From an uncultured delta proteobacterium (GTDB lineage: Bacteria > Desulfobacterota > WTBG01), in contig CAVVUR010000013.1 of the NCBI GenBank assembly GCA_963751515.1, positions 202,163-266,162 of the forward strand: a stretch of DNA of 64,000 nt. The letters run 5' to 3'. How positions within the stretch are numbered: position 1 is the first letter of the stretch; every line of letters starts with the position of its first letter. Under the pieces are notes generated by a model. It searched no databases, had not been told where the DNA came from, and saw only the letters and a program-made list of their open reading frames with translations. Positions 22,986 through 31,424 of this stretch are shown here, in pieces. Both the position numbers and the translations under genes were made by a program.

Positions 22986-24161
22986 TTATTCTTTCACTCG
23001 CATTTCAGATCCAAAATCGACATTACATTCAGTTAATCTTTTTTTAGTAAAAGAAACGAATGGATGATCGACCCCCAATGCTTTCTCCCCAATTGACAAA
23101 GCATGTTTGTAAAGGGGTACTGCTTCCTTTATTTTGCCCTCTTTACGATAAAGCTCAGCTTGGTAATATAAGGTAAAAGCAACAATGGGATGATCGACCC
23201 CCAATGCTTTCTCCCTAATTGACAAAGCACGTTTATAAAGGAGTTCTGCTTCTTTATATTTACCTTGAACAACATTCAATTCAGCAATATTCACAAGCAC
23301 AGCGGCTACATCTGGATGATCAGGACCAAGCATTTTCTCGTCGATTGTTAACGCTCGTTTAAGAAATGATTCAGCTTCATCATATTTTCCCTGTTTACGA
23401 TAGAAGACGGCTACATTATTTAATGAATTTGCTACATCGGGATGTTCTGGACCGAGAACCTCCTCTCTAATTGATAATGCTCGCTTGATGAAAGGTTCGG
23501 CTTCTTTATACTGGCCATTCTTAACATACACCCCAGCAAGATTATTGTATATAGTAGCAACATCGAGATGATCGGTCCCCAATGCTTTCTCCCTAATTGA
23601 CAGAGCACGTTTATAAAGGAGTTCTGCTTCTTTATACTTACCCTGGGAAACAAACATCGAAGCTTGAGATTGGAGAATTGTAGCTACATCGGGATGATCA
23701 GGACCAAATAATTCCACTATAATAGATAACGCACGTTCAAAAAGGGGTTCAGCTTCTTCATACTTACCCTGGCGATCGTAAAGAGTAGCCAAACCATTAA
23801 GTGCAGTCGCAACATCCTGATGGTTAGACCCCGATGCTTTCTCCCAAATTGACAAAGCACGTTTGTAAAGGGGTTCAGCTTCTTTATACATACCCTGCAA
23901 TTTATAAGCTTCAGCCAAATTGAATAGAGCTGTTGCAACGTTTGGATGTTCCGAACCCCATGTTTCTTCCGTCAAAGAAAGGGTTTCGCTGGCTATTGGG
24001 ATGGCTTCTTTATAGTGGCCAATGTCCATTAGTATAATGCTTTCCTTATTGAGTTCTCGCGGAGAGGATGATTGAGCAAAACATACCTTATTATCACTGT
24101 GCAAATTAAAAAATAAAAAAATGGAAAACAGAAGCAAAACGTTGAAAAAACGGGTATGCAT
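22986..24161 (-). CDS. Secreted tetratricopeptide-repeat protein (42-aa TPR_10/12-type repeats)
   Basis: About 8 repeats of HPDVA..LNNLA..Y..QGKY.EAEPL.KRALSI.EK.LG. Confidence 0.92.
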   Translation of the reverse strand: MHTRFFNVLLLFSIFLFFNLHSDNKVCFAQSSSPRELNKESIILMDIGHYKEAIPIASETLSLTEETWGSEHPNVATALFNLAEAYKLQGMYKEAEPLYKRALSIWEKASGSNHQDVATALNGLATLYDRQGKYEEAEPLFERALSIIVELFGPDHPDVATILQSQASMFVSQGKYKEAELLYKRALSIREKALGTDHLDVATIYNNLAGVYVKNGQYKEAEPFIKRALSIREEVLGPEHPDVANSLNNVAVFYRKQGKYDEAESFLKRALTIDEKMLGPDHPDVAAVLVNIAELNVVQGKYKEAELLYKRALSIREKALGVDHPIVAFTLYYQAELYRKEGKIKEAVPLYKHALSIGEKALGVDHPFVSFTKKRLTECNVDFGSEMRVKE

Positions 24162-24236
24162 TACAATCTCCGATCTCTTGTTGGTTTAATTGCAATTAAT
24201 AATCTTGATTCATTTATCTCCTTGTACTGCTTTAGA

Positions 24237-24254
24237 AAACGGCGTGGTTTGTAA
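24237..24254. repeat. Cassette-boundary motif copy 1
   Basis: AAACGGCGTGGTTTGTAA. Confidence 0.9.
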
Positions 24255-24352
24255 TCCTGTATTCCATAAGGTTACTTTAAAGATTGATGACTCTCTCGCT
24301 TACTCAACCCGATGACCGGAACAGTCTGCTGCAAAGCGGGTAATGTAAGTTT

Positions 24353-24634
24353 TTAATCTATCCCAGACTTTTCTTCAAGTTTGTCCAAAATAGTATCGTA
24401 TCTGTCAGCTTGTTTTTCCCATGTATCAATTAACTTAGAAAATCTCTCTATATTTTCACCTTGGATTCTAAGCTGTTGTTCCACAATTTTTTGCTGGTCA
24501 TTTACTACTTGTTGTTGCCGCTCTGTTTCTTCAAGCGCCCTATTGTATGCTTGTACCTGTTCAGAGTTGCGATTTGAACACCCTAAAAAGGATAATAAAA
24601 GAATCATAAATAATGTAAAAGCTGTTTTACGCAT
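24353..24634 (-). CDS. Small coiled-coil lipoprotein
   Basis: Lipobox FLGC; Q-rich helix. Confidence 0.75.
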   Translation of the reverse strand: MRKTAFTLFMILLLSFLGCSNRNSEQVQAYNRALEETERQQQVVNDQQKIVEQQLRIQGENIERFSKLIDTWEKQADRYDTILDKLEEKSGID

Positions 24635-24719
24635 AACTATTCCCCTTCACTATGCAACAATTATTTTTGCCTTTTTATTACTGTATCGTTTCAGACAGCC
24701 TAGTTCATAAGCAAATAGA

Positions 24720-24737
24720 AAACGGCGTGGTTTGTAA
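24720..24737. repeat. Cassette-boundary motif copy 2
   Basis: AAACGGCGTGGTTTGTAA. Confidence 0.9.
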
Positions 24738-24945
24738 CGAAGCCTGTACCAAGTAATATCACGGGGCTTTATATCGGCAGAAATATGGCCATTGATAAGC
24801 ATAGATTATACCCTTGATACAGTCCTCATACAAGCCAATCATCACCCCCATTCAAGACCAGCCAGCCTACCGTTTACTGACTCCGTCACATCAAAAACAT
24901 TAATCATTCCTAATTTTCATCCGAATTAAATATCATCTGTTCAAC

Positions 24946-29291: not shown

Positions 29292-29390
29292 CTTTAAAAA
29301 GTGAAACCATCAATTGTAAATAGACCGTGCTTACCATCCCTATTTTTATAAGTAAGCCCGATAGACATTTTATCTCCATAAGCAGATAGA

Positions 29391-29408
29391 AAACGGCGTG
29401 GTTTGTAA
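29391..29408. repeat. Cassette-boundary motif copy 4
   Basis: AAACGGCGTGGTTTGTAA, 2 bp after stop of 29411-30025. Confidence 0.9.
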
Positions 29409-29410
29409 TA

Positions 29411-30025
29411 TTATGGGGTTGGTGAAACTCTTATCTGCAACTCAATGTTATTTTCATATTTCCCCAAATTATGGTCAGGTTCAACAACTGTAATTTTTAT
29501 TATTGTGCCATCTAGGGAAAAGCCTTTTGGGGGTACTGGGAATGTATATAGACAGATTGATTTTATATAATTCATGTTTTTATCTTGATAACCAATGCTG
29601 TCCCAATCTGTTACTTCCTCGTCTGAAACCTTCTCCCCGTGATTAAATAATTCAAATTTAATTTTTCCTTCAAACTCATAAGTTCTATTTTCTTTCCCGC
29701 ACCCCGATGGAATGGTGTCGGGTGAACTTGAAATGATAACTTCGTAATTATCTCGATACTTTGGTTTTAAAGGGTAAGTTTTAGAATAACCCCTTTCATA
29801 AAAAGAAAACTTGTCGGTTACTATTGGTTGATACAGGTCTTCTGGTGGATACGCAAGATGAACTATTTGCCATACCCATAAAGGTATAGGAATGACACCG
29901 AATGAAAATCCAAGAAAGAGTAGGACAATAAAAATTAAGCATAAACGGCGAATCCATTGAAAACGTATAATTAACCAGAAAAATAGAGCTGCAAATACCA
30001 ACACCATTAGACCTAATGCCACCAT
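29411..30025 (-). CDS. Membrane-anchored hypothetical protein
   Basis: Two N-terminal TM segments; GAAGGA RBS. Confidence 0.7.
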   Translation of the reverse strand: MVALGLMVLVFAALFFWLIIRFQWIRRLCLIFIVLLFLGFSFGVIPIPLWVWQIVHLAYPPEDLYQPIVTDKFSFYERGYSKTYPLKPKYRDNYEVIISSSPDTIPSGCGKENRTYEFEGKIKFELFNHGEKVSDEEVTDWDSIGYQDKNMNYIKSICLYTFPVPPKGFSLDGTIIKITVVEPDHNLGKYENNIELQIRVSPTP

Positions 30026-30070
30026 AAATTCTATTCCTTCTTAAAGATGATGCCTGTTTTATGGCTTAAT

Positions 30071-31398
30071 TGCTAACTTTGGTATGAAAGCGTACCCCCC
30101 CTGTCGGTTGCTTTATAAAGACACTGAGTATATAGTGGCAGCTCCAAATGTTTTAGAAAGGAGCTGCAGTGTCATGAAACAGGAAGAGGCAAAAAAATTT
30201 TCAGGAGACACACCGTCTTTCCAAAAGTGGTAAAAGTAAAAATGAAATATCAAGAATCCTGAAGATCAGGAAGCCAACCATTATAAAATGGTTAAACCAG
30301 GATACTTACACTGAAACCCGTGGCTGGCAAAAAGGTCAGGCTCACACATATGGATCAAACATTGCTGAACGTATATGTGCCATAAAACGTCAGCGTGTCG
30401 AGAACAATAAGTATTTTGTCGGCAGTGAATATGTTCAGATGGACTATGCAAAACAGTACCCGAGTGAAGAACTGCCATCAATCTGGTTCATCGATGAAAC
30501 AGTACGTCAAGCCGGACTGCAGACACGAAAGCCGAAAAAGCATAAAAAGGGTGGATCGCAATACCTGTTATATCCGGTCCAGTCAATCAGGAATTTAGGC
30601 TCTGTGCAGCAGTCAGCTGACTTTATCGGCAAAAAGTATATTACCGGTCAACGAGAGCCGGTCAACATTTTTTCGACCAGTTATTATGCACCCTTTAAGC
30701 TGTATCAAATCAAGCCGGTACAGGCGGCAACAGCTGCGCATGCTATTGAAAACCTGATGTGGTTATGGCGGAAATATCCGCTTCCTGATGTGCTTCGCAT
30801 TGACAACGGCCTGCAGTTCAAAGGTTCGGGCCGTGGCAAGAGAAGCCTTGGAACATTTTTAAAGTTCCTTTTGAATTTAAAGATTACACCGCTATTCGGT
30901 TCTCCTTCGAAGCCGTGGACCAACCCACACATAGAAGGACATAATCGGGTATTCAATGAAAAAGTCTGGGGCCGAAACTTTTTTACGCATGGAGATCAGA
31001 TTGCCGCAGAGTGCAAACGTTTTAACAGTGAAAACTTGGAGTATTTTCACTATAAGTATGCTCATCTCATATTCAATGGCAACTATGTATATATAGATCC
31101 CGACCAGGAACTTGAAATAGAAAAATTAGTATCTGTAAAAAACAAAAGAATATTTTTCATACGGTTTGTTCAATTACTGGAAAAACAGAAGAAAGCATAT
31201 GTCAAAATTCTTAATGAAGACATTTGGCTGCCTGAGCAATATAACCATCAGTTCGTGCTCGCTGAATGGAACATTGAGAAAGAAAGATTATTCATCTATT
31301 CAGAGTTTGAAAAAATCGCTACTTTGATTATGGAGCATACCTTCAATCTAAATATATAAACCGACAGGGGGGGGTACGCTTTCATACCAAACCTAGCC
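30071..31398 (+). mobile_element. Insertion sequence (DDE/rve transposase, IS481-like)
   Basis: Terminal IRs containing TTTGGTATGAAAGCGTACCCCCCCTGTCGGTT; 6-bp flanking duplication CTTAAT (30065-30070, 31399-31404). Confidence 0.85.
30439..31359 (+). CDS. Integrase-core transposase (N-terminus frameshifted, from ~30174)
   Basis: QSADF, LRIDNGLQF, PWTNPHIEGHNR = D,D,E triad context. Confidence 0.85.
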   Translation: MDYAKQYPSEELPSIWFIDETVRQAGLQTRKPKKHKKGGSQYLLYPVQSIRNLGSVQQSADFIGKKYITGQREPVNIFSTSYYAPFKLYQIKPVQAATAAHAIENLMWLWRKYPLPDVLRIDNGLQFKGSGRGKRSLGTFLKFLLNLKITPLFGSPSKPWTNPHIEGHNRVFNEKVWGRNFFTHGDQIAAECKRFNSENLEYFHYKYAHLIFNGNYVYIDPDQELEIEKLVSVKNKRIFFIRFVQLLEKQKKAYVKILNEDIWLPEQYNHQFVLAEWNIEKERLFIYSEFEKIATLIMEHTFNLNI

Positions 31399-31408
31399 CT
31401 TAATAATT

Positions 31409-31424
31409 AACGGCGTGGTTGTAA
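31409..31424. repeat. Cassette-boundary motif copy 5 (one T fewer)
   Basis: AACGGCGTGGTTGTAA; right flank shared with copy 2. Confidence 0.85.

Follow-up and report, generated by a model that had tools for sequence, protein, structure and literature searches.

We analysed a 64,000-nucleotide (nt) stretch of contig CAVVUR010000013.1 from an uncultured delta proteobacterium, hereafter called the window, whose positions are used throughout. Between 22986 and 31424 it carries an array of five minus-strand genes of 93-391 codons, arranged in two runs and associated with copies (c0 to c5) of an 18-bp word, AAACGGCGTGGTTTGTAA; the element to which this core word belongs is the subject of this report. 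The module behind c1 contains the gene of a 391-amino-acid (aa) TPR protein with a signal peptide (22986..24161; Pfam TPR_12, 1e-118), and the module behind c2 that of a 93-aa lipoprotein with the lipobox LGC and without a Pfam family (24353..24634). A 130-aa multi-pass membrane protein is encoded behind c3 (27703..28095), and an S26 signal peptidase I homologue with an N-terminal membrane extension of about 135 aa behind c4 (28404..29291; Pfam Peptidase_S26, 8.5e-37). The module behind c5 encodes a 204-aa membrane-anchored protein (29411..30025), and an insertion sequence (IS) lies between this gene and its core. All five genes are on the minus strand. The identities agree with the original prediction, made from the DNA letters, which had named a TPR protein, a lipoprotein, a membrane protein, a signal peptidase and, past the IS, another membrane protein. 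The TPR and signal-peptidase products match their own families only, the three unassigned cassette proteins stay without a Pfam family when matches up to E ≤ 1 are admitted, and neither of the two cassette proteins searched in the protein Atlas has a named neighbour.

A scan of the window allowing up to two mismatches found four exact plus-strand matches of AAACGGCGTGGTTTGTAA, starting at 24237, 24720, 28172 and 29391, and nothing further, against 0.01 expected by chance; none of 100 shuffles reached four. Read in the sense of the genes, on the minus strand, these are the exact cores c1 (24237..24254; sense TTACAAACCACGCCGTTT), c2 (24720..24737), which is followed by the full leader module ATGAAC-N14-CGATAC, c3 (28172..28189) and c4 (29391..29408), which lies 2 nt beyond the stop codon of the upstream gene. 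The core c5 (31409..31424, minus strand), TTACAACCACGCCGTT, is one A short and abuts the IS. Two degenerate copies on the same strand are added here. The core c0 (22620..22636), TTACAAACTACGCTGTG, lies 3' of the TPR gene with no gene behind it and was detected by nhmmer (E 7e-5) and by a covariance model, R1 (E 4.5e-8). The element c3' (28322..28361), identified by eye 40 nt past the signal-peptidase stop, retains the 5' arm, TATTAC and T run of the element described below, with the 3' arm replaced. All cores of the array are in direct orientation, and the core-to-start-codon distances for the minus-strand gene that comes next are 75, 85, 76 and 99 nt. The five sites listed by the original prediction are therefore present as four exact copies and one that is a base short, and they do stand 75-99 nt upstream of different co-oriented genes. 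In the 2.96-Mb assembly to which the window belongs (G000, 74% complete), the word is confined to the island that holds the array and to one copy with two mismatches on contig C11. The C11 locus is paralogous, with two diverged tandem copies adjoining a broken paralogue of the island serine recombinase. The element totals eight copies by model and two by eye in G000, at three loci, and is not the transcription-factor box or scar scattered genome-wide that would have spoken against the earlier proposal.

The island, at about 19-34 kb, has a GC content of 0.39 over 19001-34000, versus 0.50-0.56 outside, and adjoins tRNA-Arg and a degenerate integrase fragment. It holds two diverged copies of a 4.6-5.0 kb unit consisting of an R repeat, the flank U2, a core, one or more genes, the flank U1, a core, a gene and a terminator. 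A consensus scan placed the closing terminator-like hairpins at 22567..22583 (unit 2) and 27524..27546 (unit 1), both on the minus strand. The U1 flank, upstream of c1 in the sense direction (24234..24357, minus strand), is 86% identical to 28169-28292, with 90.7% over 107 nt. The U2 flank (24732..24867, minus strand) is common to 31419-31553 at 84-85% (24732-24848 versus 31419-31535, 84%). It can form an imperfect hairpin of about 110 nt that includes TTACAAACC, with DNA-fold z scores of -2.48 for the c5 copy and -0.58 for the c2 copy. In addition, a 32-nt repeat family with CATAAGCARATAGA occurs in copies 2 and 4. In this layout, c5/c2 and c3/c1 occupy corresponding positions, and much of the mosaic pattern reflects duplication of the unit followed by gene replacement behind each core.

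Similarity between paired copies stops at the edges of the word. Identity upstream and downstream of the core is 26/30 and 10/30 for c1/c3, 24/30 and 7/30 for c2/c5, and 27/30 and 4/30 for a C11 copy paired with a metagenome copy (C11b/L019a). The pattern is reversed for c2 and the metagenome copy L025 (6/30 upstream, 19/30 downstream). Past its core, L019 continues into GC-rich chromosomal DNA homologous to contig C7, and three contigs of the metagenome run X2 match the window from 28172 on but are unlike it ahead of 28172. The shared and mosaic flanks described by the original prediction are thus confirmed, and the role of the word as the boundary of single-gene modules is supported, with breaks located exactly at the word edges.

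A hairpin element and its leader

On the sense strand, AAACGGCGTGGTTTGTAA covers part of a longer element, namely its loop (TATTAC), its 3' arm (AAACCACGCC) and its initial Ts. The real dyad of this element is GGCGTGGT-loop-ACCACGCC followed by a T run, and it is intact only in copies from relatives. The AAAC and GTTT 'arms' within the 18-mer are incidental, and the recombinase core AAAC-GGCGTG-GTTT that had been proposed is not supported. Judging from the predicted folds, the 18-mer belongs to an element shaped like an intrinsic terminator and does not form a recombinase core by itself. Alignment of 17 copies gave the sense-strand consensus AATGGCATG.A.TATTACAAACCACGCCGTTTTTTATTT..AGAAT...CGATA. 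The eight copies with a long leader align over about 95 nt, in which three conserved blocks keep a fixed spacing, with 14 nt between the leader blocks.

Five copies in relatives have intact hairpins. L025 reads GGCGTGGTGT-ATTAC-AAACCACGCC (-17.8 kcal/mol), L026c has the same form with the loop ATTGC (-22.6 kcal/mol), L063 (-12.5 kcal/mol) and L064 (-15.7 kcal/mol) keep intact stems, and L067 reads AATGGCGTTAAAT-ATTAC-ATTTCACGCCATT (-11.0 kcal/mol). None of 200 shuffles folded as well as the native sequence in any of the five, and a T-rich run stands behind each; L064 was also terminator-like in a terminator scan. Compared with L025, L067 keeps the stem despite changes in both arms, the sole clear two-sided change. 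The intact copies consist of a GC-rich stem of 8-13 bp, a loop of 5-11 nt and a T/U run, and some are positioned after stop codons. All five therefore agree with an intrinsic terminator, defined as a GC-rich stem-loop and U run after a gene, whereas c1-c4 in the window do not (0 to -10.2 kcal/mol, z ≥ -0.67). The 5' arm of the four exact window copies has decayed (ATGGCATACAGGA and similar), leaving half-sites, and because of this loss the window copies do not fold. DNA folds at c0, c1, c3 and c4 are likewise no better than those of shuffles (z -0.49 to +1.15).

The leader gave no sign of a conserved RNA fold, with no pair predicted in the consensus of eight long-leader sequences. A known RNA family was also considered and set aside, as Rfam at gathering score yielded nothing but the tRNA in the window and nothing but c-di-GMP-I riboswitches in six related loci, covering the element nowhere. 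These riboswitches lie in L025 at 173-291 and 2190-2309 (minus strand; 53.7 and 51.8 bits), before a CBS-domain gene and the next gene, and the L025 copy of the element comes after that riboswitch-preceded CBS-domain gene. Stretches of about 170 nt resembling the L025 riboswitches are present on at least five contigs of G000. A short upstream open reading frame (ORF), M-x-x-x-ITNHAVF, was rejected, as its frame is not kept: L022b has an extra T, c4 and L026a lack the start, and the stops vary. Its downstream blocks are conserved regardless of frame, and its degenerate codon pattern has no match in 41 other genomes of the class.

Distribution and gene turnover

Scans for the exact word returned 10 genome stretches and 22 metagenome stretches. 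Since about 17 occurrences are expected by chance in the genome collection, by our own arithmetic, most of the genome hits should be chance. Similarity extends beyond the word in one of the 10 genome stretches (L009) and in seven of the 22 metagenome stretches (L019, L022, L023, L025 and L026/L030/L032), the last three being one locus met three times. L019 (81% over 2650 nt) and L025 (84% over 447 nt) match housekeeping DNA of G000, indicating that both derive from close relatives. A profile of these copies revealed additional ones in L022, L019 and L026, loci that carry two to three copies each, among small membrane-protein genes. The sequence-only model R1 matched five of 42 genomes of the class, namely G000 and four of its ten same-family relatives. 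One of these matches, that of G004, is doubtful as it falls within a DnaJ-like ORF, which leaves three to four of the ten relatives, and R1 found the element in none of the 31 genomes from the other five families of the class. As far as these matches reach, the element is family-specific and low in copy number. About half of all copies have altered cores, and pairs of elements without an intervening gene occur in C11, L019 and L022.

One exact-word match with a shared flank is in a metagenome-assembled genome (MAG) labelled Deltaproteobacteria. Three other origins or expansions were tried and rejected. The MAG behind L009 has one exact match, and its near-matches do not outnumber those of the control, so that it has no genome-wide copy family. 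Two viral contigs hold the word in the coding context of the TARA contig L016 and have nothing else in common, and a plasmid search gave a lepB match only.

The genes behind the element change at one chromosomal slot. The gene of the 130-aa protein, with its leader and a diverged element, recurs in the sister species G005 (82% over 435 nt) at a different locus, upstream of an inositol-monophosphatase/uvrC pair. The same slot in G000 holds a degenerate element and a different, 115-aa lipoprotein gene. In G002 it holds two lipoprotein genes that end in an intact hairpin in the opposite orientation, and in G007 a relic only, recognized by eye. In G006, G003, G008 and G010 the slot contains other sequence and no element at E < 0.01; the anchor gene of the slot is present in seven of the ten relatives. 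At one orthologous slot, the motif is therefore followed by different genes in different relatives, as the original prediction would expect.

These observations also bear on the proposal that the element is a protein- or RNA-binding regulatory site of envelope genes, whose flanks resemble each other through unit duplication and whose sharp edges result from selection. Its fixed position 75-99 nt upstream of start codons, the constant 14-nt spacing of the leader blocks, the envelope nature of all downstream products and the joint inheritance of element, leader and gene for the 130-aa protein are what such a site would produce. However, no gene lies behind c0 or behind the tandem pairs, the element in L026 and G002 is not upstream of a co-oriented gene start, and the word occurs at two loci only, which is not a regulon. 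No sigma-70-like promoter stands at a constant place relative to the word, the promoter scan being at shuffle level (37 found, 33.3 expected), and the ECF-like two-block motif AGAAY-N14-YGATA has 16 matches in the genome versus seven in the reversed control, one of them at the element; both promoter types were rejected. The flanks of several pairs are moreover unalignable and not merely diverged. We regard a regulatory site as improbable.

Module boundaries, recombinases and mobile remains

Based on the anatomy of the element, the similarity breaks and the gene changes behind it, we propose that it is a terminator-derived junction module heading small accessory envelope genes, where genes get duplicated and replaced, and that the array is cassette-like without being an integron. 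We hold this proposal about evenly balanced between right and wrong, which makes it the best supported of the readings weighed. The module would be a lineage-specific intergenic unit of about 75-90 nt, in its intact state the GC-rich hairpin GGCGTGGT/ACCACGCC with its T run. Behind it come a semi-conserved leader (T-run, CAAGAAY, 14 nt, CGATA) and a small gene whose product is exported or located in the membrane. The module would punctuate a low-GC, horizontally acquired island, whose unit framework was duplicated and where other genes took the place of those behind the cores. Loss of the 5' arm in the window copies, which no longer fold, would permit read-through of each unit as an operon. 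Gene turnover would take place at the hairpin itself through duplication and palindrome-provoked illegitimate or short-homology recombination, with no dedicated enzyme. The array would then behave in a cassette-like manner, functionally closest to the rAID-1 arrays (for recombinase-associated acquired interbacterial defence) of Bacteroidales.

Several observations weigh against this proposal. In pairs that are independent of one another, the same two positions mark the breaks to within 1 nt, as site-specific exchange would predict, whereas illegitimate recombination at palindromes is usually less precise. In addition, four copies of the word agree at 18/18 positions, against 84-90% identity of their shared flanks. 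This difference, unexplained by a decaying terminator, suggests that the word itself is under constraint or has undergone gene conversion. Break precision and 18/18 identity are the observations least well explained by a terminator-derived module. Across the 17 aligned copies only 54% of the stem cells are paired and no compensatory pair was counted, so the stem is kept in a minority of copies, and its conservation depends on few of them. Scanning with the exact word also biases the metagenome sample toward intact 3' arms, termination and read-through are predictions from the folds, and an intact recombinase gene divergently adjoins the array, like an integron platform.

The same precision and identity would be expected if genes were captured by a dedicated site-specific system analogous to an integron. 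Cutting and rejoining at the core would excise, insert and reshuffle core-leader-gene units, with the half-sites of the array acting as hybrid or 'termination-only' sites. Its candidate enzymes would be the serine recombinase, a tyrosine recombinase acting in trans at the 11-6-11 dyad ATGGCGTGGTG/TATTAC/AAACCACGCCG, or an HUH nuclease nicking the hairpin or its immediate surroundings. We consider such a system unlikely. A more specific form of it appears slightly less probable still. In this form, a Thermodesulfobacteriota-like lineage would possess an undescribed cassette-capture system that recombines at the hairpin, served by an enzyme that is neither IntI nor a XerD homologue of the rAID kind. 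The small serine recombinase, or an HUH nuclease acting on the folded single strand, would cut the loop or the stem base and move core-leader-gene units for envelope proteins from one chromosomal slot or island to another, with the one-armed 18-mers as acceptor or termination half-sites. Gene capture would also account for the different genes found in either orientation at one orthologous slot, for the geneless pairs in C11, L019 and L022, which resemble empty cassettes, and for the loop TATTAC being conserved while the stem changes between L067 and L025. Some copies have TAATATTAC or TAGTATTAC at the loop, which we take to be the nick-site word of CRESS-type Rep origins. However, a search for Viral_Rep was empty, though its control likewise matched in no genome. 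The conserved T run is a terminator feature that a recombinase site does not need, the window copies have neither dyad symmetry nor a fold, and the altered cores of about half of the copies also weigh against gene capture. Neither a rearrangement nor a circle was seen among the contigs compared, all of them from other organisms; no read run contained more than 0.11 of the sampled words, and the four runs compared gave mainly the IS and the conserved Rhs core.

The enzymes at hand were examined in turn. A small serine recombinase of 232 aa (32183..32881, plus strand; Pfam Resolvase 1.7e-26, and the N-terminal part of NCBIfam XisF/Mpi) is divergent from the array, an arrangement that would suit gene capture. 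It is full length for its family, with 1221 homologues at E ≤ 1e-10, among which the listed full-length matches are mostly 220-253 aa. Nothing was found that links it to the 18-mer. Apart from G000, G005 is the one genome of the class in which it occurs; there the family is represented by a fragment without an array, beside a toxin-antitoxin pair in another context. The 3' part of the recombinase gene and the HigB/HigA-like pair at 33058-33748 form a segment (32571-33982) that shares 96% identity over 1413 nt with G005:C14:129921-131330. This is well in excess of the 82-88% measured at shared regions and suggests that the small module was transferred recently. A better candidate site for the enzyme may be the palindrome TGCAAACGTTTGCA, which lies at 22215..22228, 27184..27197, 31798..31811 and 31988..32001, the fourth copy being 180 nt upstream of the recombinase gene. 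These four copies bound the two 4.6-5.0 kb units, lie in R repeats of about 500 nt and are found nowhere else in the assembly. We would therefore look to these palindromes, and not to the 18-mer, as the natural candidate sites of the serine recombinase. The palindrome also resembles LacI/PurR-type operators.

The island integrase, the other enzyme named by the original prediction, is a degenerate tyrosine-integrase fragment of 157 aa (15263-15736) that has lost its catalytic HxxR region, about 6.9 kb from c0 and 7.2 kb from the first array gene, and it does not qualify. No IntI was found either, a TIGR02249 search of the 74%-complete assembly giving nine matches of which the best reached 70.8 bits against a cut-off of 265 bits. 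The gene-capture proposal thus has no enzyme linked to the word. The tRNA-Arg gene and the integrase fragment that follows it (15132-15736), together with a 291-aa family-A DNA polymerase fragment (17003-17878), are what is left of an integrated element where the low-GC region has its left edge. Elsewhere in G000, repeats of about 1.0-1.1 kb, 89-91% identical and each with a tyrosine recombinase gene of 265-277 aa, occur at C4:41725-46816, C6:~54360-55360 and C10:~207790-208910. The C4 recombinase adjoins three secreted-protein genes, each with a repeated segment of about 330 nt, forming an array-like locus outside the window.

An HUH nuclease is represented in the island only by the relic of an IS200-type Y1 transposase (25457..25684, plus strand; three stops; PF01797, 24 bits, E 7.6e-5), directly past an Rhs tip and 720 nt from c2. 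Its presence could be read in favour of gene capture and also of a small transposable element (a miniature inverted-repeat transposable element, or an IS200/IS605-type or other IS end) that happened to land between genes and of which the copies would be scars or ends. The copies are indeed multiple, lineage-restricted and intergenic, some are palindromic, and the core begins with TTAC, which we take to be the cleavage word of IS608. Yet there are no terminal inverted repeats, inverted partners or target duplications around c0-c5, G000 holds only 8-10 copies at three loci, and no Y1 gene was evident by eye, no family scan being run, among the ORFs beside the metagenome copies. Four long Y1 genes (306-407 aa) lie elsewhere in the genome, on C3 and C15, and a separate GTAG-type genome repeat seems their more likely candidate partner. 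A transposable origin is accordingly the least credible of the readings weighed here and very unlikely. A multi-copy repeat of the genome that contains GTAGGAGCGG is REP-like in appearance.

The IS next to c5 (30067..31410, plus strand) is IS481-like, with a probable TAATT duplication, and is unrelated to the 18-mer. A second copy on contig C17 is 99.8% identical over 1345 nt, and the IS-free c5 junction is present in a contig of run X1 from another organism. The Rhs tip is an orphan C-terminal end (24961..25485, plus strand) with the core end ...DPIGL and a short Cys-rich C-terminus; its Pfam RHS match (3.8e-6, 27.1 bits) is just below the 27.9-bit cut-off, and the assembly contains no full-length Rhs gene. 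It is followed on the plus strand by two overlapping multi-pass membrane ORFs (25853-26131 and 26056-26553) and then, at 26576-27139, by another Rhs fragment. A 33-nt direct repeat (24835-24867 and 26909-26941) brackets the entire Rhs insert of about 2 kb (24961-27139).

Among the cassette proteins, the 204-aa protein has homologues in none of the ten relatives, and the signal peptidase is matched there only at the catalytic C-terminal residues 117/140-287 (54-65% identity, in frames of about 203-416 aa). The island signal peptidase is the sole S26 match of the assembly, while every relative has a LepB-like gene of about 205 aa. The housekeeping lepB is therefore probably in the unassembled part.

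Comparison with known systems

A full-text literature search gave no description of the element among the matches listed. Arrays of small genes separated by repeats are found in integrons and in the rAID-1 loci of gut Bacteroidales, and the same layout is present here in an unrelated sediment lineage. What distinguishes this array is a different class of recombinase and a repeat whose origin, a terminator hairpin, would be readable. If the exchange is enzymatic, it would represent a third, independent cassette system with a site small enough for a direct test; if not, it would be a clear natural example of terminator palindromes as breakpoints of gene replacement. Either outcome bears on the turnover of accessory envelope genes and on how 'integron-like' repeats in metagenomes are read.

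Like an intrinsic terminator, the element has the stem, the loop and the T/U run of its intact copies after stop codons. It differs in that the loop and the 3' arm are conserved as sequence, and in that the window copies are stemless. Terminators are normally not homologous between unrelated genes. The modules between pdif (XerC/XerD) sites of Acinetobacter plasmids are discrete groups of genes bounded by recombination sites of alternating orientation. They resemble the present modules in lying between short sites with no dedicated recombinase nearby, and the intact element has the 11-6-11 geometry. All copies of the array are direct, whereas pdif sites, as we presume, alternate; the arms are also unlike those that we take dif to have, and a T run is no feature of dif.

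Similar to a chromosomal integron, the locus combines a divergent recombinase, co-oriented small genes of mostly unassigned function, a species-specific repeat and varying gene content. The co-oriented array beside a divergent recombinase is present as a layout, and promoter-like hexamers occur in 31840-32180, but the scan as a whole is at shuffle level. The attC sites of integrons are imperfect hairpins of 57-141 nt with paired RYYYAAC/GTTRRRY ends, 3' of each cassette gene. Compared by eye, the pair RYYYAAC/GTTRRRY, in the form that we presume it takes, is absent here, and the U2 hairpin at c5 lacks an AAC/GTT pair. The repeat is linked to the 5' side of the gene here and not to the 3' side, and where intact it folds into a short, perfect hairpin with a T run behind it. 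The failure to find IntI, or an attC-like fold at c0, c1, c3 and c4, supports the original prediction that this is not a canonical integron.

The closest resemblance is to rAID-1, described in Bacteroidales as recombinase-associated acquired interbacterial defence arrays. These clusters have a low GC content and a recombinase, and between their short, co-oriented orphan-immunity genes lie conserved motifs 'reminiscent of integrons' (Ross et al. 2019, bioRxiv 10.1101/471110; PMC12247911). The present locus likewise has at least two co-oriented short genes, a GC content below about 41% and an intergenic motif before each gene. The two share the layout, the acquired low-GC cluster, the company of Rhs polymorphic toxin fragments at this locus and a mechanism of gene acquisition that is unknown in both. 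The Rhs tip and the Rhs fragment share the island with the array, on the other strand. The rAID definition, as given there, calls for a XerD-family tyrosine recombinase co-directional with the genes (bioRxiv 10.1101/471110; PMC12247911), whereas here a serine recombinase lies on the opposite strand. None of the cassette proteins could be assigned to an immunity family in Pfam or, for the two searched there, in the Atlas, and the host is not a member of Bacteroidales, the Atlas neighbours being Thermodesulfobacteriota. The array thus shares the general plan of rAID-1 while differing from it in the class and orientation of the recombinase and in its host.

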